A stretch of DNA of 64,000 nt, taken from positions 544,001-608,000 of the forward strand of contig OZ241362.1 of assembly GCA_965200315.1 (NCBI GenBank). The letters run 5' to 3'. This DNA comes from Candidatus Latescibacterota bacterium. GTDB lineage: Bacteria > Latescibacterota > UBA2968 > UBA8231. Made by a program: the position numbers and the translations under genes. The notes below the pieces were generated by a model. That model was not told the origin of the DNA, did no database searches, and was given only the letters and a program-made list of their open reading frames with translations. The first letter of the stretch is position 1. Every line of letters begins with the position of its first letter. Positions 7,459-58,347 of the stretch are shown here, one piece after another.

Positions 7459-7932
7459 TCAAGGTCTGGCAAAAAGAGGAATATCTTGACGCAACTCGGC
7501 TTCCAACCTAGAGTGGCAAGAAGGGCAAACCGAAATCAGATGTTCCAGCTTATTGGCCTCTATATTGGAAGAGAAACTGCGGTAGGGAATCTTGTGATGT
7601 ACGTCGAGCTGACGCCCTAGTTCCTCTTCGCTGACTCCGCATATCTGGCAGATGAAGCCATCGCGCGTCCGCGCCTTTAGCGCTTGAGGTTCCCAATTGG
7701 CCCCCCGCCGTTTGGAAGTTCCCCCTAAGCAAACCTCTAAAGAGGGCATAGCCTCTGTCCAAGCACGGCGGCAGGACACGTCGCAAAAGTGCAACTGCGC
7801 TTGACCCGCATACCAAGTCGGCACCTCAATCTCTAGCCGACAGTGCGCACAGCGCGTAGCGATCTGCGCACTGTCGCCAGCAGGGCATCGTTCGCCAAAA
7901 TTAAATCCCATCTGAGCACTAGAAGAAACCAT
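7459..7932 (-). CDS. HNH endonuclease with N-terminal Cys (zinc-finger-like) motif
   Basis: RDGFICQICG...LDVHHKIPY...LISVCPSCH; N-terminal CAHC...FCDVSC. Confidence 0.8.
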   Translation of the reverse strand: MVSSSAQMGFNFGERCPAGDSAQIATRCAHCRLEIEVPTWYAGQAQLHFCDVSCRRAWTEAMPSLEVCLGGTSKRRGANWEPQALKARTRDGFICQICGVSEEELGRQLDVHHKIPYRSFSSNIEANKLEHLISVCPSCHSRLEAELRQDIPLFARP

Positions 7933-37938: not shown

Positions 37939-40557
37939 ATGACCCAGACAGGCACCATTGAACCCACCGACTACGAGCGGTTGTTGCTGGTCTATCTCCA
38001 CGACCCGCTCGACAAGGCCCTCGACATCCGCGGACACGAAGCCCGCGCCGCCCGCTATGCTTCCTGCGCCCGCGGCTGGAGCGCGACTCGCGCTACCATA
38101 AAGCATGAGGCGCAATTAGCAGACCAACTCGCCGCCCGCGCCGAGCGCATCCCCATGCCGGCGGCAGGCTCCAAAGGAACGTGCGCCGTTGGTTTGGAAA
38201 ACGAGTGCATTGAGGTGCGCCATCCGGTGAGTGCCCAGTCCGCCGAGCTAACCGGGCTGGCCCTCAACGAGGACCGCATGATCGGCATCATCAACTCCAT
38301 CGTGGGCGACCTACCCGACGCCCCTCGTCCGCGCTTTCTCGCACTCTGGCGGCTGCTCCCCGCAAAGCTCGGCCCGCAGTTGGCGCGACTGCCAGCCGAC
38401 ACCCGCGTACCGGACCACACCCTGATCCAGCACACGGACATTACCAGCGGCCTGTGGGCCAGCCACCAAACTGTCCACGGAAGCGCGCTTTTGTCCTTGT
38501 CTCTAGGGCCAGTACAGACCTTCATCGAAGCGGCCCGCAGTGTGCGCGACCTGTGGACGGGTAGTGCTATTTTGTCGTGGCTGACGTTCCAAGGGCTGCG
38601 CCCGCTGCTGGCTGCCCTCGGCCCGACCGCACTCGTCTATCCGGCCCTGCGCGGCCATCCATTGATGGACCTATGGCTGCGCGAGCAGGGGTTAGAGCAG
38701 GTCGTGCCGCTTCCGTCCAAACAGGCCCTCCAGTCGCCCTCTATCCCCAACCGCTTCGTTGCCCTCGTGCCCAGCACCCAAGCCCAAAAGCTGGCGGACG
38801 CCTGCATCCAATCCGTTGAGCAGGCGTGGCGCGGCTTGGCGGACGATGTGAAAAAGTCCCTCGACCTCAAGCTATCGTCATTGGAGCCCGGTTGGGCCCA
38901 GCACTGGCAAGAGCAGGTAAACAGCTTCTTCGACATCCAAACCTCCATCCTGCACGAGCGCGACTTAGGCGACGCGGAACTGGCCCATCTAATCGGCGGG
39001 CACGGCTCGTTTGAGGCCGTGTGGCCTGAAGCGCACAAAGTTCGCCAGCTCGCCAACGCGATCCCAAAAGCAGAGCAACCCGGCTACGATCAAGGCTCAG
39101 CCGGCCGCTGGCAAGCCCAACTCGAAGCGTCGGCGCGGCTGATGGAAGCACAGCGGTCTATCCGCCACGTACCAGCCACTCCGATCGCAAGCCCCTCGCC
39201 CCCCAAGTGCAGCCTGCTCGGTTCTTACGAGCAAATGGGGCCGCCCGACCTAGCCGATTCTCGCCAATTCTGGGAAAAAGCCGCAGACAGACTCAAGCTC
39301 CACGGCGTCCGCCTGCGGCCCGGCGAGCGATTTTCCGCCATCGCCCTGTGCAAGCGGTTTGCCGCTCCAGCGTTTCTCGCCCGCGAACTTCGGCTCGAAC
39401 CGGCCGACCTGCGCTTCCCGGATACCGCCACGCTCGCGGCTGCACAATGGCTGGCGGAGGCCGACATTAACCCGGACGCCGTGCGGAGCGAGTACGGGGA
39501 CTGGAACGGCCGCTGGCTGCATCAGAATACCCGCGATGATGTGGACGAAGGCGACCAAGAGCCACCTCTGCCAATCTGGCAAAAGATCAAAAAAGCAAAA
39601 GAGCCCGAAAACGTGGGCGCACCCCCTGTTTACTACGCCATCCTAATGATGGACGCCGACGAGATGAGCCGTTGGCTGCGAGGCGACAACGCTCCACAGG
39701 TGCGTGAGGTTCTGCACCCGAAGATGGTTCGTTATTTCGAGGGGCTTGGGAGCCAAGGAGTGGGGGACGACCTCGACGCCAAGCGACCGGTCGGCCCAGC
39801 CCTACACGCCTCCATTAGCGAGGCACTCAACAATTTCGCCAGTCGCGTTGCCCCGAAAATCGTGCAGGACCAGCAGGACCACTACGGCACAACCATCTAT
39901 TCGGGCGGCGACGACGTCCTAGCTCTGCTGCCGATGCGCCAAGCGGTCGCCTGTGCGGTTGCCTTGCGCCGCGCCTTCCGCGGCGAGGAAGACACCCCCG
40001 GGGTGCCGCGTGGCTGGATCGAGCGCGATGGGCAACACCTGCTGACCATGGGCCACAAAGCCACGCTATCGGCCGGCATCGCCTTTGTCCATTACAAGGA
40101 GGATTTGCGCTTGGCCCTGCAAGCGGCCCGCGGCGCAGAAAAGACCGCCAAGAGCAGCGGGCGCAATCAGCTCGCACTCCGCTTCATGCGGCACGCTGGC
40201 AGCCACGACGAGGCCCTCGTGCCGTGGGCGTGGACGCCGCAGTTCCAATGCTTGGTCGAGACTTTTGCCAGCGGTGCGACTGACCGCTGGGCTTATCGCC
40301 TGAGAGCGGAATTGCCGACTTTGCAAGCGGACGCTCTGCCCGTCGCGGCTGTCAACGCCGAAATACGCCGGCTCGTCACGCGGACTGTTGACAATCCGTC
40401 CGATTCAAGTAGCCCGTCCGGCCAAGAAGTAGAGAATTGGTGGAAGGAGTTTTACACAGCCGGCAGCAAGCGTGGACGCACACACTCCGAGCTGCTTGAA
40501 GCCTTCACCTGCCTCTGCCAAGGGGCCTCTTTCGCCGCACGAGGTCGCGATGCCTAA
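37939..40557 (+). CDS. cas10: Type III-B CRISPR Cas10/Cmr2
   Basis: LHDP..K N-terminus, PADTR.PDH, GPVQTFIEAARSVRDLWTGS, YYAILMMDADEM, intact YSGGDD palm motif. Confidence 0.96.
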   Translation: MTQTGTIEPTDYERLLLVYLHDPLDKALDIRGHEARAARYASCARGWSATRATIKHEAQLADQLAARAERIPMPAAGSKGTCAVGLENECIEVRHPVSAQSAELTGLALNEDRMIGIINSIVGDLPDAPRPRFLALWRLLPAKLGPQLARLPADTRVPDHTLIQHTDITSGLWASHQTVHGSALLSLSLGPVQTFIEAARSVRDLWTGSAILSWLTFQGLRPLLAALGPTALVYPALRGHPLMDLWLREQGLEQVVPLPSKQALQSPSIPNRFVALVPSTQAQKLADACIQSVEQAWRGLADDVKKSLDLKLSSLEPGWAQHWQEQVNSFFDIQTSILHERDLGDAELAHLIGGHGSFEAVWPEAHKVRQLANAIPKAEQPGYDQGSAGRWQAQLEASARLMEAQRSIRHVPATPIASPSPPKCSLLGSYEQMGPPDLADSRQFWEKAADRLKLHGVRLRPGERFSAIALCKRFAAPAFLARELRLEPADLRFPDTATLAAAQWLAEADINPDAVRSEYGDWNGRWLHQNTRDDVDEGDQEPPLPIWQKIKKAKEPENVGAPPVYYAILMMDADEMSRWLRGDNAPQVREVLHPKMVRYFEGLGSQGVGDDLDAKRPVGPALHASISEALNNFASRVAPKIVQDQQDHYGTTIYSGGDDVLALLPMRQAVACAVALRRAFRGEEDTPGVPRGWIERDGQHLLTMGHKATLSAGIAFVHYKEDLRLALQAARGAEKTAKSSGRNQLALRFMRHAGSHDEALVPWAWTPQFQCLVETFASGATDRWAYRLRAELPTLQADALPVAAVNAEIRRLVTRTVDNPSDSSSPSGQEVENWWKEFYTAGSKRGRTHSELLEAFTCLCQGASFAARGRDA

Positions 40558-41632: not shown

Positions 41633-42518
41633 AACCCTGCTGTTCATGCACGCCCTGACCGGGTTGCACCCAGGCAGCGGCACGGCCCTCGGCGTAGTCG
41701 ATCTGCCGGTGCAGCGCGAACGCCATACCCACTGGCCGACCATCCCCGGCTCGTCGCTGAAGGGCGTCCTCCGCGCCGAATGCCGGCGGGTTCTTGGCCG
41801 GGGAGCCGAGGACCTGCTAACGGCTTTTGGGCCGGAGATGGGCAACGCATCGGACCACGCCGGGGCCGTCGCCTTTGTGGACGCCCGCATTCTCGCCTTT
41901 CCGGTGCGCTCGCTGACCGGGGTGTTTGCTTGGGTGACCTGCCCGGCGGTGCTGGAGTGCCTCGCCCGCGACTTGGGGCTTGTGAGCAGCAACAAGCTCC
42001 CCGCCTTCCCCACTCCGAAGAAAGACACCGCTGCCTGTGTGCCCAACAGCCCGCTAATCGCGCACGACGAGCACCTGCTGTTGGAGGAATTTGAATTCGC
42101 CCTCGCCCGTGCCGACGCCGACGCCGACGCCAGCAAGATCGCCGACTGGATTGCGTGTCATGCCGTGCAAGACGAGGGGACAAGGGGCCGGCTGCGCCGT
42201 CACTTGGCCGTTTTGCACGACGACGATTTCACGCACTTCGTCCGCAACGCCACCGAAGTCGTCGCCCGCGTCGGCTTGGACTACGAATCGAAGACCGTGC
42301 GTAAGGGGGCGCTCTTTTACGAGGAATACCTACCGGCCGAGACCTTGTTCTATTCGCTGGTGCTGTCTAGCGACAGCCGCCGAGAATCGAATTCCAAAAG
42401 TGCCGCCCAGATCTTATCGTGGCTCCGCGACAACGCACCCACCGTGATTCAGATCGGCGGCGGCGAGACCGTTGGCAAGGGGCTATGTGCGGTCCACTTT
42501 GCGGAGGACATGCCATGA
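41622..42518 (+). CDS. cmr4: Type III-B Cmr4 (Cas7 group, target RNase)
   Basis: LHPGSG...VDLPVQRE (catalytic Asp present), IPGSSLKG, QIGGGETVGKG. Confidence 0.96.
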   Translation: MSDKTLLFMHALTGLHPGSGTALGVVDLPVQRERHTHWPTIPGSSLKGVLRAECRRVLGRGAEDLLTAFGPEMGNASDHAGAVAFVDARILAFPVRSLTGVFAWVTCPAVLECLARDLGLVSSNKLPAFPTPKKDTAACVPNSPLIAHDEHLLLEEFEFALARADADADASKIADWIACHAVQDEGTRGRLRRHLAVLHDDDFTHFVRNATEVVARVGLDYESKTVRKGALFYEEYLPAETLFYSLVLSSDSRRESNSKSAAQILSWLRDNAPTVIQIGGGETVGKGLCAVHFAEDMP

Positions 42519-42919
42519 GCACACTCGACCAGCGCCGGGCACAACACGCTTGGGACGCCGTAGAGCAAGCGGCCAAACTCAAAGAAGACGACAAGAAAAC
42601 CTTCGCCCGCGAGGCCAAGAAGCTCCCCATCCGCATCAAGACCGCAGGGCTTGGGCAAGCCGTTGCCTTTCTCCGTGCCAAGAAAGACAAGAAAAAGCGA
42701 GAAGATGAAGATCCTCGCATACGCCTACTGAGAGAGCTTGGCAACTGGCTCCTCGACGAGCGTGGCCTAGAGTCGCCTTCGCAGGATGAGGACGCCCTAA
42801 TCCAAGCCATCATCCGCGGCGACGCCGACCTGCTGCGCCGCGCCACCGAAGAGGCCCTGTTGTACTTGCAATGGCTGACGCGCTTTGCCGAAGCAGAAAT
42901 CGGGACCGGAGATGACTAA
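42515..42919 (+). CDS. cmr5: Type III-B Cmr5 small subunit
   Basis: TLDQRRA, KLPIRIKTAGLGQAVAFL, ATEEALLYLQWLTRFA. Confidence 0.93.
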   Translation: MSTLDQRRAQHAWDAVEQAAKLKEDDKKTFAREAKKLPIRIKTAGLGQAVAFLRAKKDKKKREDEDPRIRLLRELGNWLLDERGLESPSQDEDALIQAIIRGDADLLRRATEEALLYLQWLTRFAEAEIGTGDD

Positions 42920-45215
42920 AATTATGTCAGAGGTTCCGACCCTGCCGAAAACGACCCGCGACCTGCTCGCGGCTGTTGGCGTTAAAAAACGCCACCCCGG
43001 CCTCCAGCTAGACAAGCTATCGGCTGTCGGCAATATGGAAAGCCAGAAGCAGGCGTTGGAGAAAGTCACCGCTACGCACCGCGACAATCAGCTATTGCAA
43101 AAGCTACGCGACCGCCGCTGCGACACCTTAGACCAACTCTTGGCCCAGCGGCTGACGATGACCACGGGCGGTCCGCTGACCCTGCATCTGTCGCGCTCGG
43201 GCGCACTCGAAAACGCCGGTATCGCCCTGCACCCACTCTACGGCTTTGCATACCTGCCGGGCAGCGGCATCAAGGGGCTTACTCGGGCCTATGCCGAGAC
43301 TATATGGGCACCGGCTCAGCCCGACCCGGAAAAGGCGTGGCGGCAAATTGAAGGGGCATTTGGCTGGAGCAGGGGATCGGAACGCCACAAAGGGAATTGG
43401 CGGCCCCAAACAGTCGAGCCTCAAGCAGGAGCCTCGACCGGCCGCATCGTCTTTCACGACGCTTGGCCCCTGTGTTGGCCTAAGCTCATCATCGACATCG
43501 CCAACAATCACCATCCCGCCTACTACGACGGCCAAGACGATCCGGGCGACTGGGAAGACCCGACGCCGATCTACTTTCTCGCTCTCGGCGCGGGCGAGCA
43601 GTTCGACTTCGCCCTGTCAGACCGCAAGCGCGAAAACGACCGTCTGCTCAGCTTGGCCTGCGACTGGCTGAAAAGTGCCCTGACTATCGAGGGAGCCGGA
43701 GCCAAGACCGCCGCCGGCTACGGCCGCTTCAAGCCGAAGGAAGGAAAACGAGCCTCCATCCCGCAAACGCTATGTAGTGCGACCTATGATCTGCGGCTGG
43801 CATCGCCAGCTTTTCTCGCCGGTGCCAATCAGCAGCAAGAAGACTGCGATTTGCGGCCCGCCACCTTGCGCGGCCTATTGCGCTGGTGGTGGCGCACCAT
43901 GCATGCGGCCCACCTCGACCGCGCTACGCTCAAAAAGCTGGAAACCGCCGTTTGGGGCGACGCCGAGAGCGGCAGCCCAGTGCGGATTGCCGTGGAGCGA
44001 GAGGGAGACGAGAAGCCGACGAAGTACGACCACAAGGACGACAAGAAAAAGTTCCTGCCGGAATCCAATTTTAAGCGTCAGCATGACCTTCAAGCCCCTC
44101 CAGACAAGAAGACGACCCAAGGGCTATTCTACGCTTCCTACGGCATGGACGACGCAGGCAAGAAGCGTTGGTACCGACCCGCAGGGACACGGTGGTCCAT
44201 CCGCCTTGACGTCCGGCGCGGTCGCTTGCCAGTCAACACCCCACACATGCAACCGCTAAAAATTGAACCCGCCGACCTACTCGCTCAGGCTGAGGTCGCT
44301 CTCTGGCTGCTGTGCCGTTTTGGCGGCGTCGGCTCAAAAGGACGCAAGGGCTTCGGATCTTTTGCGGACATTGAAGTCGAGGGCATTGCCAACGCACAGG
44401 ATTGCCAAGACCGTGCTAGGGACTTCAGGAGGCATACATGCCAGCTTAGCGATCACCAAGGCAAGACAGGTTCGCCCGCGCTAGAGCAAATGAACACATG
44501 TGAGATTCTGACGCCTTGGAGCGACCCTTGGACGGTACTCGACCAACTTGGCTATGCGGTCCAAGGCTTCGCCCAGCAATATGCACATGACGAGCGCAAA
44601 AAAGCCCTCGGCCTGCCGCGGAAAATCCACGGTCCCCGATCTTTACCAATAGTTCATCAAAAACAAAATCCTCGCAACCACAAGCAGCCTAAGACGTTAT
44701 CCGCCGGCGGAATTAAGCGGCACACCGCGCCCATTCACTATCACTTAGCGACAACAGACGAGGGCAAGCTACTCGTCCGCGCAACCGCTTTCCCAGCGCA
44801 TCGGCTACCCAATTATCGGAAAAGCAAAGAGATGCTGGACAAACTGGTGGCCTTTCTCAAAGAGGATCTGAAGAAACGCGTAGAACAGAATCCCAACATC
44901 GGCCAAAACCAAGGTGGGAACAGCCCGGCGAAACCGGCGAAACCCCTCCCCCAAGCCCGCGACCGCGTTCAAGCCGAACTCTTAGACGAAAAGACGAAGA
45001 AAGGCCGTTGGAAAGCCAAGCTCTTAGATGGGGAACTACAAGGCCCGATACAAGACCACGAAAACGTGCCGGACGACGCTAAGCCGGGGCAGCGTGTCGA
45101 ACTGACGGTGGTCTCTGTTAGCGAGAGAGAGGTGCAGTTCAGATGGAAACCGCTTCCAACGCCCAAGAAAACATCCGGCCAGAACAATGAACAACGGCGA
45201 GGACGCCGACGATAG
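42912..45215 (+). CDS. cmr6: Cmr6-Cmr1 fusion RAMP with C-terminal beta-rich extension
   Basis: Cmr6 motifs (YLPGSGIKG, FHDAWP, GAGAKTAAGYG), then Cmr1 motifs (LRGLLRWWWR, GGVGSKGRKGFGS, LGLPR). Confidence 0.9.
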   Translation: MTKIMSEVPTLPKTTRDLLAAVGVKKRHPGLQLDKLSAVGNMESQKQALEKVTATHRDNQLLQKLRDRRCDTLDQLLAQRLTMTTGGPLTLHLSRSGALENAGIALHPLYGFAYLPGSGIKGLTRAYAETIWAPAQPDPEKAWRQIEGAFGWSRGSERHKGNWRPQTVEPQAGASTGRIVFHDAWPLCWPKLIIDIANNHHPAYYDGQDDPGDWEDPTPIYFLALGAGEQFDFALSDRKRENDRLLSLACDWLKSALTIEGAGAKTAAGYGRFKPKEGKRASIPQTLCSATYDLRLASPAFLAGANQQQEDCDLRPATLRGLLRWWWRTMHAAHLDRATLKKLETAVWGDAESGSPVRIAVEREGDEKPTKYDHKDDKKKFLPESNFKRQHDLQAPPDKKTTQGLFYASYGMDDAGKKRWYRPAGTRWSIRLDVRRGRLPVNTPHMQPLKIEPADLLAQAEVALWLLCRFGGVGSKGRKGFGSFADIEVEGIANAQDCQDRARDFRRHTCQLSDHQGKTGSPALEQMNTCEILTPWSDPWTVLDQLGYAVQGFAQQYAHDERKKALGLPRKIHGPRSLPIVHQKQNPRNHKQPKTLSAGGIKRHTAPIHYHLATTDEGKLLVRATAFPAHRLPNYRKSKEMLDKLVAFLKEDLKKRVEQNPNIGQNQGGNSPAKPAKPLPQARDRVQAELLDEKTKKGRWKAKLLDGELQGPIQDHENVPDDAKPGQRVELTVVSVSEREVQFRWKPLPTPKKTSGQNNEQRRGRRR

Positions 45216-45340: not shown

Positions 45341-46045
45341 ATGGAAGTTTTGAACTCATTGGCCGCCAAACCAACGCGGCCCCTATTGGAAAACGGCGAC
45401 CGGCTCACGCGAGCGGAATTTGAGCAACGCTACGAGGCCATGCCCGAAGTAAAAAAGGCCGAACTCATCAATGGAGTAGTATATATGGGCTCCCCCGTTC
45501 GCTTTCGTGCCCACGGCCACCCACACGTATTGCTGCTCACTTGGCTAGGGACATATAGCGCATTCACCCCAGGGGTTCTTTGTGCGGACAACGCCACGGT
45601 GCGGCTCGGGGCCGATAGCGAGCTTCAGCCGGATGCCTTGCTGCGCCTAGAGTTAGAGGTGGGGGGAAAGTCGCGGATTAGCACCGACGATTACGTAGAA
45701 GGCCCTCCAGAGTTAGTTGCCGAAATCGCAGCTAGCAGCACCTCGTACGATATGCACGATAAAATGGACGTGTATCGCCGCAGCGGTGTGCCGGAATACC
45801 TAGTCTGGCGCGTGTACGACGAGCAACTCGACTGGTTTGCCTTGCACGACGGTGCGTATATCCGCCTACTGCCCGATACGGCGGGCGCGATTTCGAGCGA
45901 CATATTTCCGGGGTTGCGATTGTTCCCATCGGCCTTGTTGGCCCATAATGCGGCGCAAGTCGTGGCCGAATTGCAAAAAGGCCTGGCGACGACCGCGCAC
46001 ACCGCGTTTATTGATCGCTTAGGAAGCGAAAAACCCAATGCCTAG
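45341..46045 (+). CDS. Uma2-family (PD-(D/E)xK) endonuclease
   Basis: LENGDRLTRAEFE, AELING, QPDA, PELVAEIA, GVPEYLVW. Confidence 0.92.
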   Translation: MEVLNSLAAKPTRPLLENGDRLTRAEFEQRYEAMPEVKKAELINGVVYMGSPVRFRAHGHPHVLLLTWLGTYSAFTPGVLCADNATVRLGADSELQPDALLRLELEVGGKSRISTDDYVEGPPELVAEIAASSTSYDMHDKMDVYRRSGVPEYLVWRVYDEQLDWFALHDGAYIRLLPDTAGAISSDIFPGLRLFPSALLAHNAAQVVAELQKGLATTAHTAFIDRLGSEKPNA

Positions 46046-46103
46046 ACACACTCTTATATGCACCATTGGCACCCACAACGCGCGCAAGCGCAAGGAGAGC
46101 ACC

Positions 46104-47222
46104 ATGACGACAATGCCTAGACACACCCTCATCTGCACCATTGGCACCAGCTTGTTCTACCCCAACCTGTCCAAGCTCGCGCAAACGAATCCAACGAATC
46201 CGCTAGGCAAGGCGTATGCGGGGCAAAAATGGAAGAACGTAGCCAGCCAACTGCATCTGCTTGAACCTACTGATCGGCAGTGTGGAGCCGAGATCAACTC
46301 GGTAGCCGATCTCCTACGCCGCGAATACATCGACAAGGTTCACTTACATCTGCTGTATTCCGATACGTCGGATGGAGAGCACATTGCCGCTGTCTTGGAC
46401 GCGTACTTTGCGGACGATGGCTGGCAGGTGCAAACCCATAGAGTATGCGATTTAAGCGACCAAGATCCGAGGGCGTTTCGCACCCGCGGCTTGCGCAACC
46501 TAGCCAAAATTCTCGGCCAATTGGTGCGCGACGCCGGGCCAGACTACTGCGCCATCAACGCTACCGGCGGCTACAAGGCGCAGATCGCCATTGCCGTGCT
46601 CATGGGTCAAGCCCTCGGCATTCCGGTGTACTACAAGCACGAGCGTTTTGATGAAATTATTCCCTTTCCGCCCATGCCAGTGGCCCTCGATTTTTCGCTC
46701 TGGCTCCGGGCCAGCGGCATGTTTACAGCACTCAGCCAGCCCAACGCCTGCGTGCCGGAGGCGCAGTTCAGCGAGGACTGGGATGAGCGCTTTGAGCCGC
46801 TGGTCGAACGGGTATCTATCGACGGCGTAAACTACCTCGAACTCTCGGCGACCGGCCAGATTTTTCACGACACCTTCCGTTCGCGTTTTCAGCAGCAGCA
46901 AGCCGGCAGCCTGCCGCCCGAGTCAAGCAAAAAGGAGGACCCTGAGCTGGGAGCGCACAGCTACAAAAACGCACACGAAACCATTTCGCGCTTTTTGCAA
47001 AAAATCACCGATGAGCGGCCTTACGTCCGTTCCTGTCACTCAACGTACTGGAACCCGGACCTACCTGAAGCGAATCGATTTCGCCTGTCCGGCGGACAAG
47101 TCCAAGGCATCTACTCGAACAGAACTTGGTGCGTGAAGTTCACAGTGCTTACAACCGCCAGCGAGCAGGACGACTTAGGCGTTGTCGTGGCCGATCTCAA
47201 CGAGTGGCTTAGTGATCAATAG
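46104..47222 (+). CDS. CRISPR-associated CARF protein (APE2256 family) with wHTH and DUF2103-like C-terminal domain
   Basis: ICTIGTS, GAEINS, SDT..G, NATGGYK, YYKHE.F. ATG 46104 follows an AAGGAG RBS; an in-frame upstream start exists at 46038. Confidence 0.85.
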   Translation: MTTMPRHTLICTIGTSLFYPNLSKLAQTNPTNPLGKAYAGQKWKNVASQLHLLEPTDRQCGAEINSVADLLRREYIDKVHLHLLYSDTSDGEHIAAVLDAYFADDGWQVQTHRVCDLSDQDPRAFRTRGLRNLAKILGQLVRDAGPDYCAINATGGYKAQIAIAVLMGQALGIPVYYKHERFDEIIPFPPMPVALDFSLWLRASGMFTALSQPNACVPEAQFSEDWDERFEPLVERVSIDGVNYLELSATGQIFHDTFRSRFQQQQAGSLPPESSKKEDPELGAHSYKNAHETISRFLQKITDERPYVRSCHSTYWNPDLPEANRFRLSGGQVQGIYSNRTWCVKFTVLTTASEQDDLGVVVADLNEWLSDQ

Positions 47223-47239: not shown

Positions 47240-48289
47240 ATGGCGACTTCATTGCTCACTCTCTACGTCACCGAACCGTCCGCTGTAGTTCGCCGCTCGG
47301 CTGGCTCCCTCATCGTCACCCTCGACGAAGACCCAGACGGCGGCGGCCCCTTGCCCGAGCGTCGCCATCGCCTCCTTGAGGTGGAGCCGCATCGCTTGGA
47401 GCTGATTGCGCTGGTTGGCCGCGCCCATATCACTTTAGACGCAACGCGGCTTTGCTTGGAGCAAGGCATTGCGGTCGCTTGGTTTCGCCGCAACGGCGAC
47501 TTTATCGGCCGCCTCGTGCCCGAGCTATCGCGCACAGCCGATCTGCGCTTGGCCCAGTTTCGCCTCGCCGACGACGAGCAGCGAGCACTGCCGCTAGCCC
47601 AAACCTTTGTCGCTGCTAAGCTCCACAATGCGGCCTCTGTGCTCGCGGCCCTGCGCTCCAACCGCCGTAACGAGCCGACCCTCGGACGCTCCATAAGTGA
47701 ACTCAAGGCCCTCGCCGCAACGGTTGACCAAGCATCCACCCGGGAAACTCTACTCGGGTTTGAGGGCGATGCGGCCCGCCGCTACTTTGCCGGCCTCAAA
47801 ATCGGCTTCACCAGCGACATCCGCTTTACTAGGCGCGCCCGCCGGCCGCCGCCGGACCCGGCCAATGCTCTGCTCTCGTTTGGCTACGTGCTGTTGGCCA
47901 ATGCCTTGGCCAGCCTACTGGAGGCCCGCGGCTTTGACCCGTATTTAGGCTTTATGCACACGGTGCGTTCCGGTCGGCCCAGTTTGGCTCTCGACCTGCT
48001 CGAAGAATTGCGGCATCCGGTGGTCGATCGCTTTGTCTTGCGGGCCTGCAATTTGCGCCAGTTGCGGCCCGCCCACTTTGAGACCGATCCAAAGCGGGGT
48101 GGTGTACGTCTTACACCCGCTGGGTTGCGCGTTTTCTTTCGCATTTGGGAAGCATTTATGGACGCGCCCCTACCCGGGACTGGAGACACTATTTCGCCGG
48201 AAGATTTGCTCCGCCGTCAAGCCGACCGCTTAGCCGATCACGTGAGGGGACGCCAGCCATACCAGCCCTTGCTTCTGCGCCACGTATAA
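47240..48289 (+). CDS. cas1: CRISPR-associated endonuclease Cas1 (no RT or Cas4 fusion)
   Basis: LLGFEGDAARRYF, RPPPDPANALLSFGY, GFDPYLGFMH, LALDLLEELR. Confidence 0.96.
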   Translation: MATSLLTLYVTEPSAVVRRSAGSLIVTLDEDPDGGGPLPERRHRLLEVEPHRLELIALVGRAHITLDATRLCLEQGIAVAWFRRNGDFIGRLVPELSRTADLRLAQFRLADDEQRALPLAQTFVAAKLHNAASVLAALRSNRRNEPTLGRSISELKALAATVDQASTRETLLGFEGDAARRYFAGLKIGFTSDIRFTRRARRPPPDPANALLSFGYVLLANALASLLEARGFDPYLGFMHTVRSGRPSLALDLLEELRHPVVDRFVLRACNLRQLRPAHFETDPKRGGVRLTPAGLRVFFRIWEAFMDAPLPGTGDTISPEDLLRRQADRLADHVRGRQPYQPLLLRHV

Positions 48290-48300
48290 GGAGCGTTGCC

Positions 48301-48588
48301 ATGTCTCATTATGTCGTCTGCTACGATGTGGTCGATAACCGCCGCCGCTACAAGGTGGCTGCTTGTCTGGATGCCTATGGCGACCGCGTACAGGACAGCG
48401 TGTTTGAACTGCCCGTGGATCGCACACTCTTGGATAAATGCCTCGTCGCGCTTGCAGATTTGATCGACCCAGACAAAGACAACATCGCTGTCTATCGCCT
48501 ATGCACCACTTGCGCGAGCGAGCGTTTCTATTTGGGAACGGGCGCAAGGGCTGGGCGCATCGGCGAGGAGCAGGTCTTTATTGCATAA
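48301..48588 (+). CDS. cas2: CRISPR-associated Cas2
   Basis: YVVCYDV..NRRR...YGDRVQDSVFE; AAGGAG RBS. Confidence 0.95.
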   Translation: MSHYVVCYDVVDNRRRYKVAACLDAYGDRVQDSVFELPVDRTLLDKCLVALADLIDPDKDNIAVYRLCTTCASERFYLGTGARAGRIGEEQVFIA

Positions 48589-48784: not shown

Positions 48785-51700
48785 GTGTGAAATGTTGCCC
48801 CGATTTCTAGGGGATTGAAACTTACGCCGACCTGGACCCGGCCGGTGGCCCGGGCCCGGCGTGTGAAATGTTGCCCCGATTTCTAGGGGATTGAAACGCT
48901 GGGTGCGGGGATACTGAAAAGTCGTCATTACGATCTCGTGTGAAATGTTGCCCCGATTTCTAGGGGATTGAAACTGCGGGGTGGGTGGAGCGGGGGGGGG
49001 GGGGTTAGGCGCGTGTGAAATGTTGCCCCGATTTCTAGGGGATTGAAACGCCGAAGCCAACGGTCACGCCAGGACAGCACTGCCCCCTCGTGTGAAATGT
49101 TGCCCCGATTTCTAGGGGATTGAAACTCCGACATGCCCGCCTGCCTGAGGGCGAGGCGGACGAAGTGTGAAATGTTGCCCCGATTTCTAGGGGATTGAAA
49201 CGATAACAACTATCCTCCGCCCGGAGGCGGGGGTTTGCCTGTGTGAAATGTTGCCCCGATTTCTAGGGGATTGAAACCTGCCGCACCGTGGTGGCGGGGG
49301 GAAGGTTGAGAATGGGGGTGTGAAATGTTGCCCCGATTTCTAGGGGATTGAAACCCGATGACCGCCATCGCTTCGAGGAATTCACGGAAGCGGGGTGTGA
49401 AATGTTGCCCCGATTTCTAGGGGATTGAAACTTGATGGCCGCAGGGGTCTTCGGCTCGAACCGGGGCGCGTGTGAAATGTTGCCCCGATTTCTAGGGGAT
49501 TGAAACACTGCTTCGATGGTGCTCATGATGATTCCTTTCTGAAAGGGTGTGAAATGTTGCCCCGATTTCTAGGGGATTGAAACCCGCCCGGTAGGCCGGC
49601 CCGCCCGTGGCGAGCAAGATAAAGTGTGAAATGTTGCCCCGATTTCTAGGGGATTGAAACTATAGGGCTTTTGGAGTTTACAAAAAAGTTAGGCACGGGT
49701 GTGAAATGTTGCCCCGATTTCTAGGGGATTGAAACCTTTGGTGGCCGCTGGCGCGCGCGCCTCGAACCGGGGCGCCGGCGTGTGAAATGTTGCCCCGATT
49801 TCTAGGGGATTGAAACTCCTTCTTGGAGGACACCGCGCCGATCGCCATCCCTATTGTGTGAAATGTTGCCCCGATTTCTAGGGGATTGAAACTGTGCTGC
49901 GGGGGTGGCTTGAGTCGTCATTGTAACAAGTGTGAAATGTTGCCCCGATTTCTAGGGGATTGAAACCGGGGGCGGTTTTCTGAGTGGTCGTCATAACAAT
50001 CTCCGTGTGAAATGTTGCCCCGATTTCTAGGGGATTGAAACCCTCCACCTGGTGGTAGGCGTGGCCGTAGCCATCGCCGTGTGAAATGTTGCCCCGATTT
50101 CTAGGGGATTGAAACCTTCTGCCTGGTAATGCAGGAAGGCCAACGTATGGCGGGTGTGAAATGTTGCCCCGATTTCTAGGGGATTGAAACTGCCATTGAT
50201 TGTGAGGGTGGCGGGGCCCTCGAGGGGTACGTTGTGTGAAATGTTGCCCCGATTTCTAGGGGATTGAAACAGGAGCTGCCGACAGCGGCTCACGACGAGA
50301 CCCGCTGCACGTGTGAAATGTTGCCCCGATTTCTAGGGGATTGAAACACAATCCCCTCTCCGCGAGGGGTTTCGGCGCGCGCCCCGACGATGGGGGCCGC
50401 GCCGACTTCCGTGTGTGAAATGTTGCCCCGATTTCTAGGGGATTGAAACCGCGACATAGCGGATGAGCTCCGCCTCTTTGGCAGGCTCGTGTGAAATGTT
50501 GCCCCGATTTCTAGGGGATTGAAACTGACCACCACCGCCTCAAGGAGTTCACGGCAGCGGGTCATGTGTGAAATGTTGCCCCGATTTCTAGGGGATTGAA
50601 ACAAGAAATACCAACCCGCGACTAACTCGCGCGGAACATCTTGTGTGAAATGTTGCCCCGATTTCTAGGGGATTGAAACGCGATAATAAAGCAATGCGTT
50701 TCATTTCAATCTCCTAATGGTGTGAAATGTTGCCCCGATTTCTAGGGGATTGAAACCTTCTTGGAGGTGGCCGTGGTGGTCATGCTATTCTCCTTCCCCG
50801 TGTGAAATGTTGCCCCGATTTCTAGGGGATTGAAACTCTCCTTGCCCCTGTGGGGCTATGAGAGTTAGTACAAAAAAGGTGTGAAATGTTGCCCCGATTT
50901 CTAGGGGATTGAAACCTTCTTGGAGGTGGCCGTGGTGGTCATGCTATTCTCCTTCCCCGTGTGAAATGTTGCCCCGATTTCTAGGGGATTGAAACTCTCC
51001 TTGCCCCTGTGGGGCTATGAGAGTTAGTACAAAAAAGGTGTGAAATGTTGCCCCGATTTCTAGGGGATTGAAACGCAGCTTCTCGAAGACCTCCCGCGAT
51101 GCTCTGCGGCGATGGTGTGAAATGTTGCCCCGATTTCTAGGGGATTGAAACATTGGGCAGTACGAAAGTTGTCATACGATTCTCCTTGCCCGTGTGAAAT
51201 GTTGCCCCGATTTCTAGGGGATTGAAACGGACGAGGGACGTGCGGGCGGTTAGGAGTTTCATTTTCAATGTGTGAAATGTTGCCCCGATTTCTAGGGGAT
51301 TGAAACACAGACGACGGCGACCAAGTGAATCGGCAGGGTGCCGATCAGTGTGAAATGTTGCCCCGATTTCTAGGGGATTGAAACTGCAATCTCCTCTAGT
51401 GCGGCCGTTATGGCCTCCGAGAGAGTGTGAAATGTTGCCCCGATTTCTAGGGGATTGAAACGCGATAATAAAGCAATGCGTTTCATTTCAATCTCCTAAT
51501 GGTGTGAAATGTTGCCCCGATTTCTAGGGGATTGAAACCTTCTTGGAGGTGGCCGTGGTGGTCATGCTATTCTCCTTCCCCGTGTGAAATGTTGCCCCGA
51601 TTTCTAGGGGATTGAAACTCTCCTTGCCCCTGTGGGGCTATGAGAGTTAGTACAAAAAAGGTGTGAAATGTTGCCCCGATTTCTAGGGGATTGAAACGCA

Positions 51701-54700
51701 GCTTCTCGAAGACCTCCCGCGATGCTCTGCGGCGATGGTGTGAAATGTTGCCCCGATTTCTAGGGGATTGAAACATTGGGCAGTACGAAAGTTGTCATAC
51801 GATTCTCCTTGCCCGTGTGAAATGTTGCCCCGATTTCTAGGGGATTGAAACGGACGAGGGACGTGCGGGCGGTTAGGAGTTTCATTTTCAATGTGTGAAA
51901 TGTTGCCCCGATTTCTAGGGGATTGAAACACAGACGACGGCGACCAAGTGAATCGGCAGGGTGCCGATCAGTGTGAAATGTTGCCCCGATTTCTAGGGGA
52001 TTGAAACTGCAATCTCCTCTAGTGCGGCCGTTATGGCCTCCGAGAGAGTGTGAAATGTTGCCCCGATTTCTAGGGGATTGAAACCCGCGCCAGCTTGTAC
52101 TTATACGTCATCATTGCGCGGCGGTGTGAAATGTTGCCCCGATTTCTAGGGGATTGAAACTTCCATTCTCCTTTTTTACGGTGCATGCCTTGACAAACCA
52201 GTGTGAAATGTTGCCCCGATTTCTAGGGGATTGAAACCCTTTCCCCCCAAAACGCACACGGCGCACGGCCGCTAAGTGTGAAATGTTGCCCCGATTTCTA
52301 GGGGATTGAAACCTCCTTGCCCCGTTAGGGGCTCTCTATGGAGTGAATACAAGTGTGAAATGTTGCCCCGATTTCTAGGGGATTGAAACTCGTCATCTTT
52401 CTCTTTCTCCTTCTCCTTTCTTTCTTGTGTGAAATGTTGCCCCGATTTCTAGGGGATTGAAACCTCCGCCTTATGGATTTGATGGCGGCGGCGGTCGGCC
52501 TCGTGTGAAATGTTGCCCCGATTTCTAGGGGATTGAAACTTGGGGGACAGCCGGACGGCGTTGTCGTACTCCTCAACGGGTGTGAAATGTTGCCCCGATT
52601 TCTAGGGGATTGAAACACGGTTTCGCGGACGGACTGGGACTGCTGGGTGCTGCTGGGTGTGAAATGTTGCCCCGATTTCTAGGGGATTGAAACGGGGCGA
52701 GCCCCCAGTTCCCGCAGAATATTGTCCACCATCCGTGTGAAATGTTGCCCCGATTTCTAGGGGATTGAAACGATGGCACGGGTTGAACTGGTGCTGCTGG
52801 ACTGCATGCTGCGTGTGAAATGTTGCCCCGATTTCTAGGGGATTGAAACCATGTGAAGAAGTAATAGCCTTCGGGGCGTGCTGCCCCGTGTGTGAAATGT
52901 TGCCCCGATTTCTAGGGGATTGAAACCTGCCGCGCCCCTTCATGGCTAAGGTCGCGGGGGGCTATGTGTGAAATGTTGCCCCGATTTCTAGGGGATTGAA
53001 ACCCAGGCCCGCGCGCCAACACTGTGCTCCTCTACATCTACGTGTGAAATGTTGCCCCGATTTCTAGGGGATTGAAACGCGAGACTGCTGGGTGCGGGGG
53101 TACTGGAACGTGGTCATGTGTGAAATGTTGCCCCGATTTCTAGGGGATTGAAACCGGCGGCGGCCTTCTGCCTCAGCCCAGGCGCGCAGCCCCCGTGTGA
53201 AATGTTGCCCCGATTTCTAGGGGATTGAAACCAACTTCGGCCATTCGGCCGCCTGAAAATATAGTTCAAGTGTGAAATGTTGCCCCGATTTCTAGGGGAT
53301 TGAAACGGCGGGAGGGGTGGGGCGGGGGGCTATGCGCGGCCGGCGGGTGTGAAATGTTGCCCCGATTTCTAGGGGATTGAAACATGCTTTTCTCCTTCTT
53401 TGGGGGTGAAAAAAACTGGTTTCGGTGTGAAATGTTGCCCCGATTTCTAGGGGATTGAAACTTGTGCAATACTTTTTTTCTCTTATTCCCCACTTTTCAC
53501 GTGTGAAATGTTGCCCCGATTTCTAGGGGATTGAAACATCCCGATGCGGGCGAAGCGCGTAAGGGTCTCGATGGTCTCGGTGTGAAATGTTGCCCCGATT
53601 TCTAGGGGATTGAAACTCATGGGTGGCCTCCTTGAGCTGGGCGAGTAGCTCCGGAGAGTGTGAAATGTTGCCCCGATTTCTAGGGGATTGAAACCCGCGA
53701 CATTCTCATCGCGGGCGGCATCGAGCCGCTCTTCGTGTGAAATGTTGCCCCGATTTCTAGGGGATTGAAACACCTCCCCAAGGATGAGCGTAAGGTGCAG
53801 GTACAGCGCTGTGTGAAATGTTGCCCCGATTTCTAGGGGATTGAAACAAGCTAGAGCGTTTTTTCGATAGTTCGTCGGGCACCTCCGGTGTGAAATGTTG
53901 CCCCGATTTCTAGGGGATTGAAACTATTTCTGCTGGCTTCAAGCTCGGCGTGGGCTGAGCCGCCCTGTGCGGCCTACGTGTGAAATGTTGCCCCGATTTC
54001 TAGGGGATTGAAACAGATCTACGGTTGCGCGGATGCGCGCATCGCGCTCCGCAGGTGTGAAATGTTGCCCCGATTTCTAGGGGATTGAAACGTCGTGCCC
54101 AGGACGTGGGAGGCTAACCGCTTTCGCGGCGTGTGAAATGTTGCCCCGATTTCTAGGGGATTGAAACGGAGTCGGAGTCGTAGCGGGACCAGTCCCTTAT
54201 GAGGACAGGTGTGAAATGTTGCCCCGATTTCTAGGGGATTGAAACCTGACCGACGCGGTGAAGTGCGACGTCACCTTGTCGATGTGTGAAATGTTGCCCC
54301 GATTTCTAGGGGATTGAAACACGTAGACTACCGTCGCCTTCTCCTCGCCGTCCGCCGACTCCGGTGTGAAATGTTGCCCCGATTTCTAGGGGATTGAAAC
54401 GTGGCGCGACACGAAGATATTCATTTCAATCTCCTTGGGAGTGTGAAATGTTGCCCCGATTTCTAGGGGATTGAAACGTGCTGCGAGACTGCGACTGCTG
54501 ATTGGGGTACTGAAAAGGTGTGAAATGTTGCCCCGATTTCTAGGGGATTGAAACTCAGTAACCTCTGGCGGCGCGAACTTCGGCGTCGCGCATGTGTGAA
54601 ATGTTGCCCCGATTTCTAGGGGATTGAAACAGGATTAGGTGGGTGTGGGGGGCTAACCCCACGGATTTGGAGAGTGTGAAATGTTGCCCCGATTTCTAGG

Positions 54701-57316
54701 GGATTGAAACCGCGTCCCCGGAGGGGTTTTAACGTGCAATTCCCAACCGTGTGAAATGTTGCCCCGATTTCTAGGGGATTGAAACTGCTGCTGGTTTGGC
54801 AGTACGAAAGTTGTCATGCGAGTGTGTGAAATGTTGCCCCGATTTCTAGGGGATTGAAACATCTTGTAGGTGGTCATAGTTCAATCCTCTCGGTTGGCGA
54901 GGTGTGAAATGTTGCCCCGATTTCTAGGGGATTGAAACGGAAATACAACTCTACTTCTACTTTCTTCATCTTCATGAGTGTGAAATGTTGCCCCGATTTC
55001 TAGGGGATTGAAACCATAGACATCGACGCGGTAGACCGCGACACCAACTTCAGTGTGAAATGTTGCCCCGATTTCTAGGGGATTGAAACTCTGCGAGAGA
55101 CTCGCGGAGCTCGTTTTCGCCCATGCCGAGTGTGAAATGTTGCCCCGATTTCTAGGGGATTGAAACGGGGATGCCGTTTGTCTCCAATTCGGCGCGGGCG
55201 CGGGTGTGAAATGTTGCCCCGATTTCTAGGGGATTGAAACACGGGTTGCGTGCGCGTGCCCACTACCTCGTACTAGGAGGTGTGAAATGTTGCCCCGATT
55301 TCTAGGGGATTGAAACACGCCGGTTGGCCGAGCCGGGGGCCTTGCCAGTGCGGCCGGGTGTGAAATGTTGCCCCGATTTCTAGGGGATTGAAACGAAAGG
55401 ATGCGCATGAGTGTTCGGGGGCCGGGCGTCATCGTGTGAAATGTTGCCCCGATTTCTAGGGGATTGAAACGGACCGGCGCGTGCGGGTTAGTGGGCGCTG
55501 CGCATGATCTCGTGTGAAATGTTGCCCCGATTTCTAGGGGATTGAAACGTGAATAACCACGCCTCCCTCTTCGGGGGCGGCGGCCTTGGGTGTGAAATGT
55601 TGCCCCGATTTCTAGGGGATTGAAACGCTACTGCGCTGTCGACCAATCCGAAGATGCGCGAAGGCGTGTGAAATGTTGCCCCGATTTCTAGGGGATTGAA
55701 ACACCAGTCATGTAGAGATGGCACGGAGTACTTCCCGTGAGGGTGTGAAATGTTGCCCCGATTTCTAGGGGATTGAAACTCTGCGAGAGACTCGCGGAGC
55801 TCGTTTTCGCCCATGCCGAGTGTGAAATGTTGCCCCGATTTCTAGGGGATTGAAACGGGGATGCCGTTTGTCTCCAATTCGGCGCGGGCGCGGGTGTGAA
55901 ATGTTGCCCCGATTTCTAGGGGATTGAAACACGGGTTGCGTGCGCGTGCCCACTACCTCGTACTAGGAGGTGTGAAATGTTGCCCCGATTTCTAGGGGAT
56001 TGAAACACGCCGGTTGGCCGAGCCGGGGGCCTTGCCAGTGCGGCCGGGTGTGAAATGTTGCCCCGATTTCTAGGGGATTGAAACGAAAGGATGCGCATGA
56101 GTGTTCGGGGGCCGGGCGTCATCGTGTGAAATGTTGCCCCGATTTCTAGGGGATTGAAACGGACCGGCGCGTGCGGGTTAGTGGGCGCTGCGCATGATCT
56201 CGTGTGAAATGTTGCCCCGATTTCTAGGGGATTGAAACGTGAATAACCACGCCTCCCTCTTCGGGGGCGGCGGCCTTGGGTGTGAAATGTTGCCCCGATT
56301 TCTAGGGGATTGAAACGCTACTGCGCTGTCGACCAATCCGAAGATGCGCGAAGGCGTGTGAAATGTTGCCCCGATTTCTAGGGGATTGAAACACCAGTCA
56401 TGTAGAGATGGCACGGAGTACTTCCCGTGAGGGTGTGAAATGTTGCCCCGATTTCTAGGGGATTGAAACGCGAGCTTCTCCGCCGCGGCGCGTTTCACGC
56501 CGGCCGCGGTGTGAAATGTTGCCCCGATTTCTAGGGGATTGAAACCGGCCGTGCTCGCTGGCGTCATACTGAAAGGATGCGCATGAGTGTGAAATGTTGC
56601 CCCGATTTCTAGGGGATTGAAACTAGTTCTCCCGGGGCTCGCTACGGGGCCATACAAAAACGGTGTGAAATGTTGCCCCGATTTCTAGGGGATTGAAACT
56701 CGGTGCGCTGCTCGGTGGTGCGGGTTTCTTTTTTAGCAGGTGTGAAATGTTGCCCCGATTTCTAGGGGATTGAAACCTGCTGCGCCCGCCGGTGGCGCCG
56801 CAGAGCAGCCCCCGGTGTAAAATGTTGCCCCGATTTCTAGGGGATTGAAACCGGACTATCCGGCGTCAAAAAGGCAACTAGAAGCTACAGTGTGAAATGT
56901 TGCCCCGATTTCGAGGGGATTGAAACAGTTTCCCCCCCCTCGAAGACGTGGTAATGAGCTAGGGGCTGTGTGAAATGTTGCCCCGATTTCTAGGGGATTG
57001 AAACGGCACTGTAGTGCTCGAAGGCTAGTTGGTGGCGGATGGCGTGTGAAATGTTGCCCCGATTTCTAGGGGATTGAAACTGCCAGCGCAAACAACGCGC
57101 TGGGGTGAAATGCAACTGCGTGTGAAATGTTGCCCCGATTTCTAGGGGATTGAAACCCATGCGCTGGGCCTCGTCGTAGACGATGAACGGGTAGGTGGTG
57201 TGAAATGTTGCCCCGATTTCTAGGGGATTGAAACCCTGGTAAGCGGTAAGGCTATCACACACTCGCTACTATTTAACCAGTATAAAATGTTACCCCCATT
57301 ATCAGGGAATCGACAC
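48785..57316 (+). CRISPR. CRISPR array, 37-nt repeat GTGTGAAATGTTGCCCCGATTTCTAGGGGATTGAAAC, about 110 repeats plus a degenerate terminal repeat, spacers mostly about 37-44 nt
   Basis: Manual count gives about 110 spacers (about 91 unique). The CCCC/GGGG hairpin, the ATTGAAAC 3' end (type III 8-nt tag), the left-hand leader and the degenerate repeat at 57280-57316 all indicate + strand transcription. Confidence 0.99.
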
Positions 57317-57360: not shown

Positions 57361-57519
57361 ATAAAGTTGCGTCCACCGCCTGCTTGACGCTCTAAAAACA
57401 AAGGCATTATTTAGCGGCTGGGCGATCAGACTGAAGCTCTTTTGCTATGGATTGGCGCGAGCACCTCGACTACCCCCGGGTGCGCGGGCGTCTCGCCCGC
57501 TTTGCGTGTCACTTTTACT

Positions 57520-58347
57520 ATGGATTGGCGCGAGCACCTCGACTACCTACTCTCTTGCGTTCAGATACAGGCGCGGCTGTTGCTGCTAGACACGCCTCTA
57601 GTTGAAGCGACCACGCCCATGTTGCGGGGCGTCTGGGGGCGGGCACTGCGGCATTTGGACGAGGAGGCGTATCAGCAGGTGTTCGCAGGCGACATGCTGG
57701 GGCATCGGCGCGTCCCCCGCTACATCCTGAGGCCAGCACCCCCCGACCCAGCGACTGCACCGGCCATCGAATGGCTCTTGCTCGGAGTCCACGAAAATTT
57801 AGAAGAAGTATTGTGGCGGGCTTGGGACGTGGCCAGCGGCATGGGGCTGGGGCCTGAGCGCACACCCTTTCGCGTACGCGAATGGCGACCGCTGGGCGCG
57901 GATAAATGGGACTTATCCACTGCAACCTGGCCCCTGCCCGGCGACCCCGCCACTACGCCGTGCCGCCTGCATTTCCCTACATCCCTGCGACTGCTCCGGG
58001 GCGGCAAACTGCTTTCCACCCCAAACTTAGAGGATGTGGCGACAGCTACCACACGCCGCATCGCCACGCTAGCCGGCACAACCAGCGGAGAAACCTATCG
58101 AGATTTAATCCGAAATATCGGTCAGGTGGCCGCCGGGCTAGCGGGTGCTCCGTGGCGCGGGCGGCGGTTCGACTTTGTGCGCTGGTCCGGTGCCCAACAG
58201 CGCGAGCTAAACATGCGCGGCGTGACCGGCGACTTAGCCCTGCCCACAGGGCCCGGCCCACTCTGGCCGCTATTGGCCGCCGCTTGCTGGACCCATATTG
58301 GCAAAGGCACGGTCTTTGGGCTAGGCCAATTGCACATCACACCGTAA
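57520..58347 (+). CDS. cas6: CRISPR pre-crRNA processing endoribonuclease Cas6
   Basis: MLRGVWGRAL, LHFPTSLRL, C-terminal G-loop HIGKGTVFGLG; lies directly after the array. Confidence 0.88.
   Translation: MDWREHLDYLLSCVQIQARLLLLDTPLVEATTPMLRGVWGRALRHLDEEAYQQVFAGDMLGHRRVPRYILRPAPPDPATAPAIEWLLLGVHENLEEVLWRAWDVASGMGLGPERTPFRVREWRPLGADKWDLSTATWPLPGDPATTPCRLHFPTSLRLLRGGKLLSTPNLEDVATATTRRIATLAGTTSGETYRDLIRNIGQVAAGLAGAPWRGRRFDFVRWSGAQQRELNMRGVTGDLALPTGPGPLWPLLAAACWTHIGKGTVFGLGQLHITP

Follow-up and report, generated by a model that had tools for sequence, protein, structure and literature searches.

A CARF7 protein with an uncharacterised C-terminal domain as candidate signalling effector of a type III-B CRISPR locus in a Latescibacterota bacterium

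The stretch of DNA analysed here, 64,000 nt of Candidatus Latescibacterota bacterium (contig OZ241362.1, positions 544,001-608,000 of the forward strand; hereafter the window), carries a type III-B CRISPR locus that includes the gene of a 372-aa protein in which a CARF7 sensor domain and a winged helix-turn-helix (wHTH) domain are followed by a small C-terminal domain. The protein is a new member of CARF7_DUF2103, a family already catalogued. It is best explained, from its sequence, as a cyclic oligoadenylate (cOA) receptor of the CARF7 clade, most likely responding to cyclic tetra-adenylate (cA4). At a probability of about 0.5, we favour the view that it is an effector gated by cA4 and limiting itself, which follows the plan of Cami1 and differs from it in the output domain. 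The gene and its parts are:

46104..47222, + strand: gene of the CARF7-wHTH-'DUF2103-like' protein, 372 aa, stop codon 47220-47222
46104..46688, + strand: CARF7 (Cas_APE2256) sensor domain, residues 1-195, Pfam PF09651
46692..46910, + strand: winged-helix-like middle domain, residues 197-269
46944..47219, + strand: C-terminal alpha/beta domain, about residues 281-372, the 'DUF2103-like' predicted output domain of ~95 aa

A sensor and scaffold shared with Cami1

The Pfam model PF09651 (Cas_APE2256) matches residues 58-190 (E 4.1e-33; 114.6 bits against a curated cut-off of 24.8) and has no other match in the 5.36-Mb genome. In an AlphaFold2 model of the whole protein (predicted local distance difference test, pLDDT, 91.1; predicted template modelling score, pTM, 0.73) the CARF domain spans residues 1-195, the winged-helix-like domain 197-269 and the C-terminal domain about 281-372. 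The closest solved protein by sequence profile is Cami1 (E 2.5e-20, versus 3.4e-9 for Sis0811), and VIA-align gave the following values for the best Foldseek chains:

Cami1, 8phj_Y: 20.6, 6.4, 235, 7-266
Cami1, 8phb_A: 20.4, 4.7, 237, 7-266
Sis0811, 7pq3_BBB: 18.9, 5.9, 235, 5-264
Sso1393, 3qyf_A: 17.9, 5.1, 236, 4-260

Structures of Csa3 are also among the Foldseek matches (2wte_A, E 2.1e-4; 6wxq_A, E 5.2e-4).

Cami1 (PDB 8phb and 8phj; PADLOC 'CARF7--CARF_RelE_like') has the same CARF7-wHTH scaffold, a similar length (406 aa in the chain on record, 372 aa here) and an equivalent place within type III loci. Its architecture, CARF-wHTH-RelE to go by PDB titles and citing papers, differs in that the place of RelE is occupied in our protein by another small alpha/beta domain, not detectably RelE. 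Cami1 is both activated by cA4 and able to degrade it, according to the accessible text of three sources (PMC11229360; PMC12409355; 10.64898/2026.10.26.761840). The long Crn1 proteins Sis0811 (7pq2, 7pq3) and Sso1393 (3qyf) have their catalytic Ser and Lys positions in common with our protein, whereas their solved chains stop after the wHTH (269-275 residues) and our family adds the kept domain of ~95 aa. A stand-alone Crn1 would consist of CARF or CARF-wHTH only, and residues 281-372 form a confidently modelled extra domain. In Csx1 and Csm6, a HEPN domain follows the CARF domain; our protein has none according to Pfam, and the PADLOC Csm6/Csx1 models align within residues 6-203, that is with the CARF part only. 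The architecture that the first-pass annotation of this DNA had read from the letters, CARF-wHTH plus an additional C-terminal domain that is neither HEPN nor detectably RelE, is thus also what PADLOC, VIA-align and hhalign return.

In the family-profile alignment, Sis0811 S12 falls on S16 of our protein (GTS motif) and Sis0811 K169 on K158 (ATGGYKAQ); going by PDB titles, these are the residues mutated in the ring-nuclease structures 7pq6 and 7pqa. In an alignment of 62 diverse family sequences (61 representatives at 28-59% identity to the query, and the query itself), S16 is kept in 57 and K158 in all 62. Because these Sis0811-type residues are kept, the CARF domain is predicted to bind cA4 and likely cleaves it slowly. 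The same two widely kept residues make it plausible that the protein is self-limiting, as had been proposed from the sequence alone.

The C-terminal domain

Modelled alone, from 65 sequences of public loci, the C-terminal domain is predicted with confidence (pLDDT 93.1, pTM 0.85) as a short strand, a helix, four antiparallel strands and a final helix. Its best kept polar positions among the 62 sequences are T/S313 (53/62), Y315 (51/62), N317 (54/62), R327 (42/62), S338 (45/62), K/R345 (52/62) and T350 (50/62), most of which would lie on one face of the sheet, to judge from strand periodicity. Small RNases and RNA-binding domains use this face of the sheet. Taken together with its near-constant fusion to CARF7 (see below) and a conservation on a par with that of the wHTH, the domain looks like a dedicated signalling output.

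Searches for relatives of the domain returned little: no match at E<=0.001 in BFVD, where the best (E 4.4e-3) is an unnamed 92-aa viral protein, a best E of 0.4 against the PDB by sequence profile, and no usable match in the ESM Atlas. An identity with Pfam DUF2103 (PF09876) was rejected: neither the protein nor its last 139 aa matches at E<=1, none of 65 family members does so at E<=1, and the six-frame genome contains no match at E<=10. 'DUF2103-like', the name given at first pass, stands as a catalogue name, given the match to PADLOC model PDLC01930, and fails as a pointer to Pfam DUF2103; because the latter does not match, the family name CARF7_DUF2103 is misleading. A RelE identity was rejected on profile comparisons. 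The 65-sequence domain profile reached an hhalign probability of 0.3% against three cyanobacterial Cami1-type tails (last 120 aa) and of 0.2% against one of them, L107, a control that is a full-length Cami1 homologue matching 8phb at E 4e-95. The PADLOC CARF_RelE models align to our protein only up to about residue 277, and no RelE-family chain is among the listed fold-search matches of the domain model, a list in which weak matches can be missed. A match of this domain to a characterised effector such as the RelE of Cami1 had been named beforehand as one result that would overturn the proposal of an uncharacterised effector domain; by sequence profile (0.2-0.3% probability), no RelE match was found.

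An indirect path leads from the domain to the Menshen protein NsnC. In a sister cyanobacterial subgroup of the family (e.g. L096; PDLC01930 match E 7.6e-139), residues 259-367 of L096 match positions 173-280 of the NsnC model PDLC03895, that is its C-terminal 108 positions, at E 1.1e-33. The domain of this sister subgroup aligns in turn with ours (hhalign Prob 75.7%, E 2.4e-5, 90 columns), and the two have in common an N-P turn after the first long strand and a T-T-[AG] end of the last strand. The link is transitive, because our own subgroup has no direct NsnC match. In the accessible text of PMC12065111, NsnC has an N-terminal inPIN domain in place of CARF, and its C-terminal effector domain varies, 'DUF2103-like' being one kind and RNase, Toprim and PLD others. 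By analogy, this effector position suggests an output module over packing material, and is the best, though indirect, argument for it.

A catalogued family without reported activity

PADLOC model PDLC01930 ('CARF7--CARF_DUF2103') matches residues 6-370 of our protein over positions 2-353 of 353 (E 1.4e-124). The C-terminal 101 aa alone match positions 262-353 (E 1.9e-17), and all 65 isolated C-terminal domains match the C-terminal part of the model. We find no difference between our protein and this family, which a Domainator preprint, in its accessible text, calls 'previously catalogued', citing Makarova et al. 2020. The first-pass annotation, which described the effector domain as uncharacterised, agrees with the literature searched (subscription papers and bioRxiv supplements lie outside this scope), in which we found no experimental work on CARF7_DUF2103. 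The family as such is not new, being already present in PADLOC and in the preprint.

A word-indexed protein search returned 1730 proteins at E<=0.001, the best 120 at 59-100% identity, and relatives are encoded in 370 of 382 candidate stretches from one-genome-per-species contigs. Their hosts include Binatia, Latescibacterota, Poribacteria, Cyanobacteria, Planctomycetota, Chloroflexota, Bacillota and others. The C-terminal domain itself is rare (145 clusters of 1.84 billion) and almost always fused to CARF7: 61 of the 145 domain-bearing clusters are 330-420 aa long, the domain is C-terminal in nearly all, and 12 of 23 clusters of odd length still show Cas_APE2256. Free-standing copies of the domain were considered and set aside; of 34 short proteins, 27 lie on contigs <3 kb, and they are therefore probably fragments, as are, by their appearance, most of the clusters outside the 330-420 aa range. 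The exceptions to the usual architecture are P0159, a variant whose tail is a coiled coil, and P0204, a helical protein of 949 aa. No clearly non-CARF architecture other than that of P0204 was found; here the domain (residues 846-943) follows a long helical N-terminal region rich in Ala, Leu and Arg, for which Pfam and PADLOC give no match.

A further set of cyanobacterial CARF7 proteins (L105 and L110-L115), ~305 aa long (345 aa in L114), has a C-terminal part of ~120 aa that ends in I-E-T-T-G and a helix; the two that were run through PADLOC, L110 and L114, are labelled plain 'CARF7--CARF'. Their tails match the 'DUF2103-like' domain weakly (hhalign Prob 43.9%, E 2.4e-4) and the sister subgroup at 68.8%. 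From these profile matches, the superfamily of the domain may be wider than its label.

The gene and its start

The open reading frame (ORF) 46104-47222 is real. Its frame is unbroken, every residue conserved in the alignment with relatives is present, and it is 59-79% identical to these relatives over its full length. The short strings by which the C-terminal domain had first been described (LGAHS, RPYVR, VLTTAS and GVVVADLNE) are all found in its translation. The longest ORF call is larger (46038..47222, + strand, 394 aa). We prefer the ATG at 46104, which gives the 372-aa product, because the aligned relatives (63 sequences, 340-435 aa) mostly start at the equivalent M-P-x-H-T-L and because an AAGGAG lies at 46092-46097, about 6-7 nt before it.

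The two starts are related by a small duplication, which involves the gene immediately upstream:

45341..46045, + strand: Uma2-family putative endonuclease gene (Pfam PF05685, E 6.1e-30; PADLOC PDC-S03, E 8.6e-12), within the operon
46038..46112, + strand: 75-nt insert, which opens with a near-copy (33/36 nt) of the CARF gene's own 5' end

The first 36 nt of the CARF gene are thus present twice, 33 of 36 being identical, 75 nt apart (window 46038-46148). The upstream copy overlaps the Uma2 stop codon, and in the closest relative, L025, the true start of the CARF gene overlaps the Uma2 stop in the same manner, from which we conclude that the two genes were uncoupled here by a small duplication. 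With the insert come an AAGGAG and an ATG of its own.

Uma2 homologues were found by tblastn in 6 of 80 related loci and near the family gene in 5 of these 6. Besides the window, the loci concerned are L002, L003, L005, L006, L025 and L038; in L038, a gene matching the PADLOC candidate PDC-S03 lies between Cas10 and Csm2. The Uma2 gene may be a recurrent passenger or partner of the CARF family gene.

Other cOA effectors in the locus, the genome and the relatives

The locus is a complete type III-B system, otherwise ordinary, with Cas10 as its presumed source of cOA:

37939..40557, + strand: Cas10/Cmr2 (PADLOC Cas10, E 1.7e-91; Pfam Cmr2_N and palm2)

Its GGDD cyclase motif is intact, as the first reading of the sequence had it (aa 656-659, nt 39904-39915). 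An HD dipeptide, presumably the nuclease motif, is present near the N-terminus (aa 21-22). Neither a HEPN, SAVED or Can-type protein nor a second CARF protein was found in the 11 locus ORFs (PADLOC and Pfam) or in 32 further window ORFs (Pfam only), and NucC is missing from the 11 locus ORFs (PADLOC). The claim that the locus has no Csx1/Csm6 HEPN, NucC or Can-type gene therefore stands for these 11 ORFs. The statement that there is no candidate cOA effector besides our protein is right for the locus and the window and fails for the genome, in which a search with PADLOC PDLC01032 found three Csx1/Csm6-type CARF-HEPN genes elsewhere:

L085, about 0.12 Mb: Csx1 gene between Cas6 and a PrimPol gene; CARF-HEPN-CARF
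L087, about 2.90 Mb: Csx1 gene, alone; 571-aa CARF-HEPN protein
L086, about 3.00 Mb: Csx1 gene, last gene of a second operon, Cmr1-Cas10-Cmr3-Cmr4-Cmr5-Cmr6

All three Csx1 proteins carry an R-N-x-x-x-H motif, and the second III-B operon (about 3.00 Mb) is complete, its Cas10 also having GGDD. In the same genome, Pfam Csx1_HEPN missed the three genes and PDLC01801 had no match; the CARF match of L087 begins only at model position 120. Given these genes, cA4 made by the window's locus could act in trans, and the argument that our protein must be the effector since it is the only one fails. Signalling in trans between loci is discussed for 133 effector-less loci in the accessible text of PMC11229360.

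Twelve loci of relatives were scanned with PADLOC for neighbours within 8 kb (114 ORFs); tblastn synteny with the window's own Cas proteins proved too insensitive for III-A and III-D neighbours, hence the use of PADLOC and of a seed phmmer count. Type III genes lie within 8 kb in 9 of the 12 loci, distributed as follows:

III-A genes near the family gene: L018, L038, L056, L065
III-B genes near the family gene: L031
III-D genes near the family gene: L008, L010, L030, L051
no type III gene within 8 kb: L014, L029, L036
Csx1 directly adjoining the family gene: L010, L030, L038, L051
double-CARF protein adjoining the family gene: L008

Four of the nine type III loci have no Csx1 (L018, L031, L056, L065). 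In the seed phmmer count, Cas10 or Cas7 was found in 50 of 80 loci, 14 of these 50 having a Csx1-like gene and 36 none; the figure is a lower bound on Csx1, because only Csx1-like seeds were used and sensitivity is limited. The seed search also misses some loci, L031 and L065 being false negatives relative to PADLOC. This context resembles the pattern reported for Cami1, which is accompanied by other effectors in about half of cases according to the accessible text of PMC11229360, and it also fits a ring nuclease.

In the III-D locus L008, the gene at 6341-7909, directly upstream of the family gene, encodes a 523-aa protein with two CARF domains, whose middle stretch weakly matches the RelE part of the CARF7--CARF_RelE model (E 2.3e-9).

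Effector, damper or regulator

If the protein is a cA4-gated effector, it would work in the following way. The III-B Cmr complex would bind target RNA and the Cas10 GGDD palm would make cA4, which, by homology, would bind the dimeric CARF domains. Next, the wHTH-linked C-terminal domains would be set free or change their orientation and attack a target in the cell. By analogy with Cami1 and NsnC, this target would probably be RNA or the translation machinery; this is the weakest step. Finally, a CARF site with S16 and K158 would slowly cleave cA4 and so switch the protein off. More tentatively, and a little short of even odds, we suggest that the C-terminal domain, as an effector module gated by cA4 and also present in NsnC, has a new fold and a biochemistry unlike that of all characterised type III effectors. 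Characterised kinds comprise HEPN, RelE, PD-(D/E)xK, Lon, TIR, deaminase and membrane-pore effectors. Cami1, a translation-blocking effector, is marked by ribosome-dependent mRNA cleavage and capture by the L7/L12 stalk; by analogy, such a module could likewise act on translation, by another mechanism.

Several observations weigh against an effector. The CARF part is clearly better conserved than the C-terminal part (mean pairwise identity 0.41, compared with 0.30 for the C-terminal domain and 0.28 for the wHTH), as expected if handling cA4 were the main job. The C-terminal domain has no recognised catalytic motif or signature, no structural relative in the PDB (0 Foldseek matches at E<=0.001) and no direct match to the NsnC model PDLC03895 in our subgroup (0/65 at E<=0.01); in this protein it is acidic (isoelectric point 5.6; family median 8.3, range 4.8-10.8), unlike RelE-type RNases. 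Sis0811 and Sso1393 have the CARF-wHTH scaffold and yet are not toxins, and SyCsm6, a CARF7-RelE protein, had ring-nuclease activity and no RNase activity in vitro, according to the accessible text of PMC9676260. No activity is reported for any CARF7_DUF2103 member in the literature searched. To these points must be added the three Csx1-type genes elsewhere in this genome, and the presence of Csx1 beside the family gene in 4 of 12 loci with a double-CARF gene in a fifth.

Much of this would be accommodated by a Crn1-type ring nuclease or damper, clearing the cA4 of this or of the second III-B locus and shielding the cell from Csx1 RNases, in which the C-terminal domain would be a non-toxic accessory for stability, dimer packing or regulation. 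We regard this as the most serious alternative, though less likely than an effector. The kept equivalents of Sis0811 S12 and K169, the high conservation of the CARF part, the three Csx1 genes with their R-N-x-x-x-H motifs, the GGDD of the second Cas10 and the Csx1 genes that adjoin the family gene in L010, L030, L038 and L051 all argue for it, as does the discussion of in-trans signalling between loci (PMC11229360, accessible text). A published survey of ring nucleases is compatible either way, its cut-off at 250 aa having left out proteins of this size (PMC12409355, accessible text). But a ring nuclease needs no extra domain, and this one is kept across many phyla and almost never occurs without CARF7; many loci have no other CARF effector within 8 kb; and a related domain occupies the effector position of NsnC (PMC12065111, accessible text). 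Nor is ring-nuclease activity at odds with an effector role, since Cami1 has such activity and is an effector nonetheless, as stated in the accessible text of PMC12409355.

The winged-helix-like domain that follows CARF in the AlphaFold2 model and the Csa3 chains 2wte_A and 6wxq_A among the Foldseek matches would also suit a cA4-responsive, Csa3-like transcription regulator, with DNA bound by the wHTH under modulation from the C-terminal domain; many CARF-wHTH proteins are read as likely regulators in the accessible text of the Domainator preprint. This reading leaves the conserved C-terminal domain without a role, and no conserved operator or partner gene was seen, none having been looked for; we consider it improbable. 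Even less credence is due to the view that the 75-nt duplication has disturbed the start of a gene that is decaying or poorly expressed in this genome, with defence left to the Cas10 HD motif and to Csx1 elsewhere. The doubled 5' end, the 394-aa frame from 46038, which adds 22 residues before the first CARF strand, and the HD dipeptide at aa 21-22 of Cas10, a putative nuclease motif, could be read in this way. The frame is nevertheless intact with all conserved residues present, the insert supplies an AAGGAG at good spacing before ATG 46104, and full-length identity to relatives is 59-79%.

Our understanding of type III CRISPR signalling comes from its effectors, and with every new one that is characterised a different way of stopping phage has come to light. 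CARF7_DUF2103 occurs commonly in cyanobacteria, in Planctomycetota and in several uncultured phyla, its protein is often the sole CARF protein beside interference genes, and it couples the Cami1 scaffold to an output domain for which solved structures offer no explanation. As an effector, the domain would add a new mechanism of defence and tie CRISPR signalling to Menshen. Should the protein be a ring nuclease and nothing more, loci of this kind would rely on effectors encoded elsewhere, which would directly support the inter-locus signalling proposed in the accessible text of PMC11229360. Taken for this window by itself, the result amounts to an annotation, that of a catalogued family in an otherwise ordinary III-B locus; the gene is a good target for bench work.

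Other features of the locus and the window

Besides Cas10, the Uma2-family gene and the CARF gene, the locus comprises:

40472-41632, + strand: Cmr3 (PADLOC)
41622-42518, + strand: Cmr4 (PADLOC)
42419-42919, + strand: Cmr5 (PADLOC)
42885-45215, + strand: Cmr6-Cmr1 fusion (PADLOC)
47240-48289, + strand: Cas1 (PADLOC Cas1, E 2e-84)
about 48301-48588, + strand: Cas2 (Pfam CRISPR_Cas2, E 3.2e-18)
48785..57234, + strand: CRISPR array, 110 copies of a 37-nt repeat (108 exact)
57442..58347, + strand: Cas6 (Pfam CRISPR_Cas6, E 2.3e-10)

The Cmr6-Cmr1 fusion is a single protein of 776 aa that ends in a Lys/Arg-rich tail. The very long array holds spacer blocks duplicated at 100% identity, for example the 300-nt pairs at 50875/51498 and 55053/55743. 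At the other end of the window, positions 504-7280 (- strand) encode a protein of 2259 aa that combines ten He_PIG Ig-like repeats with an autotransporter beta-domain.

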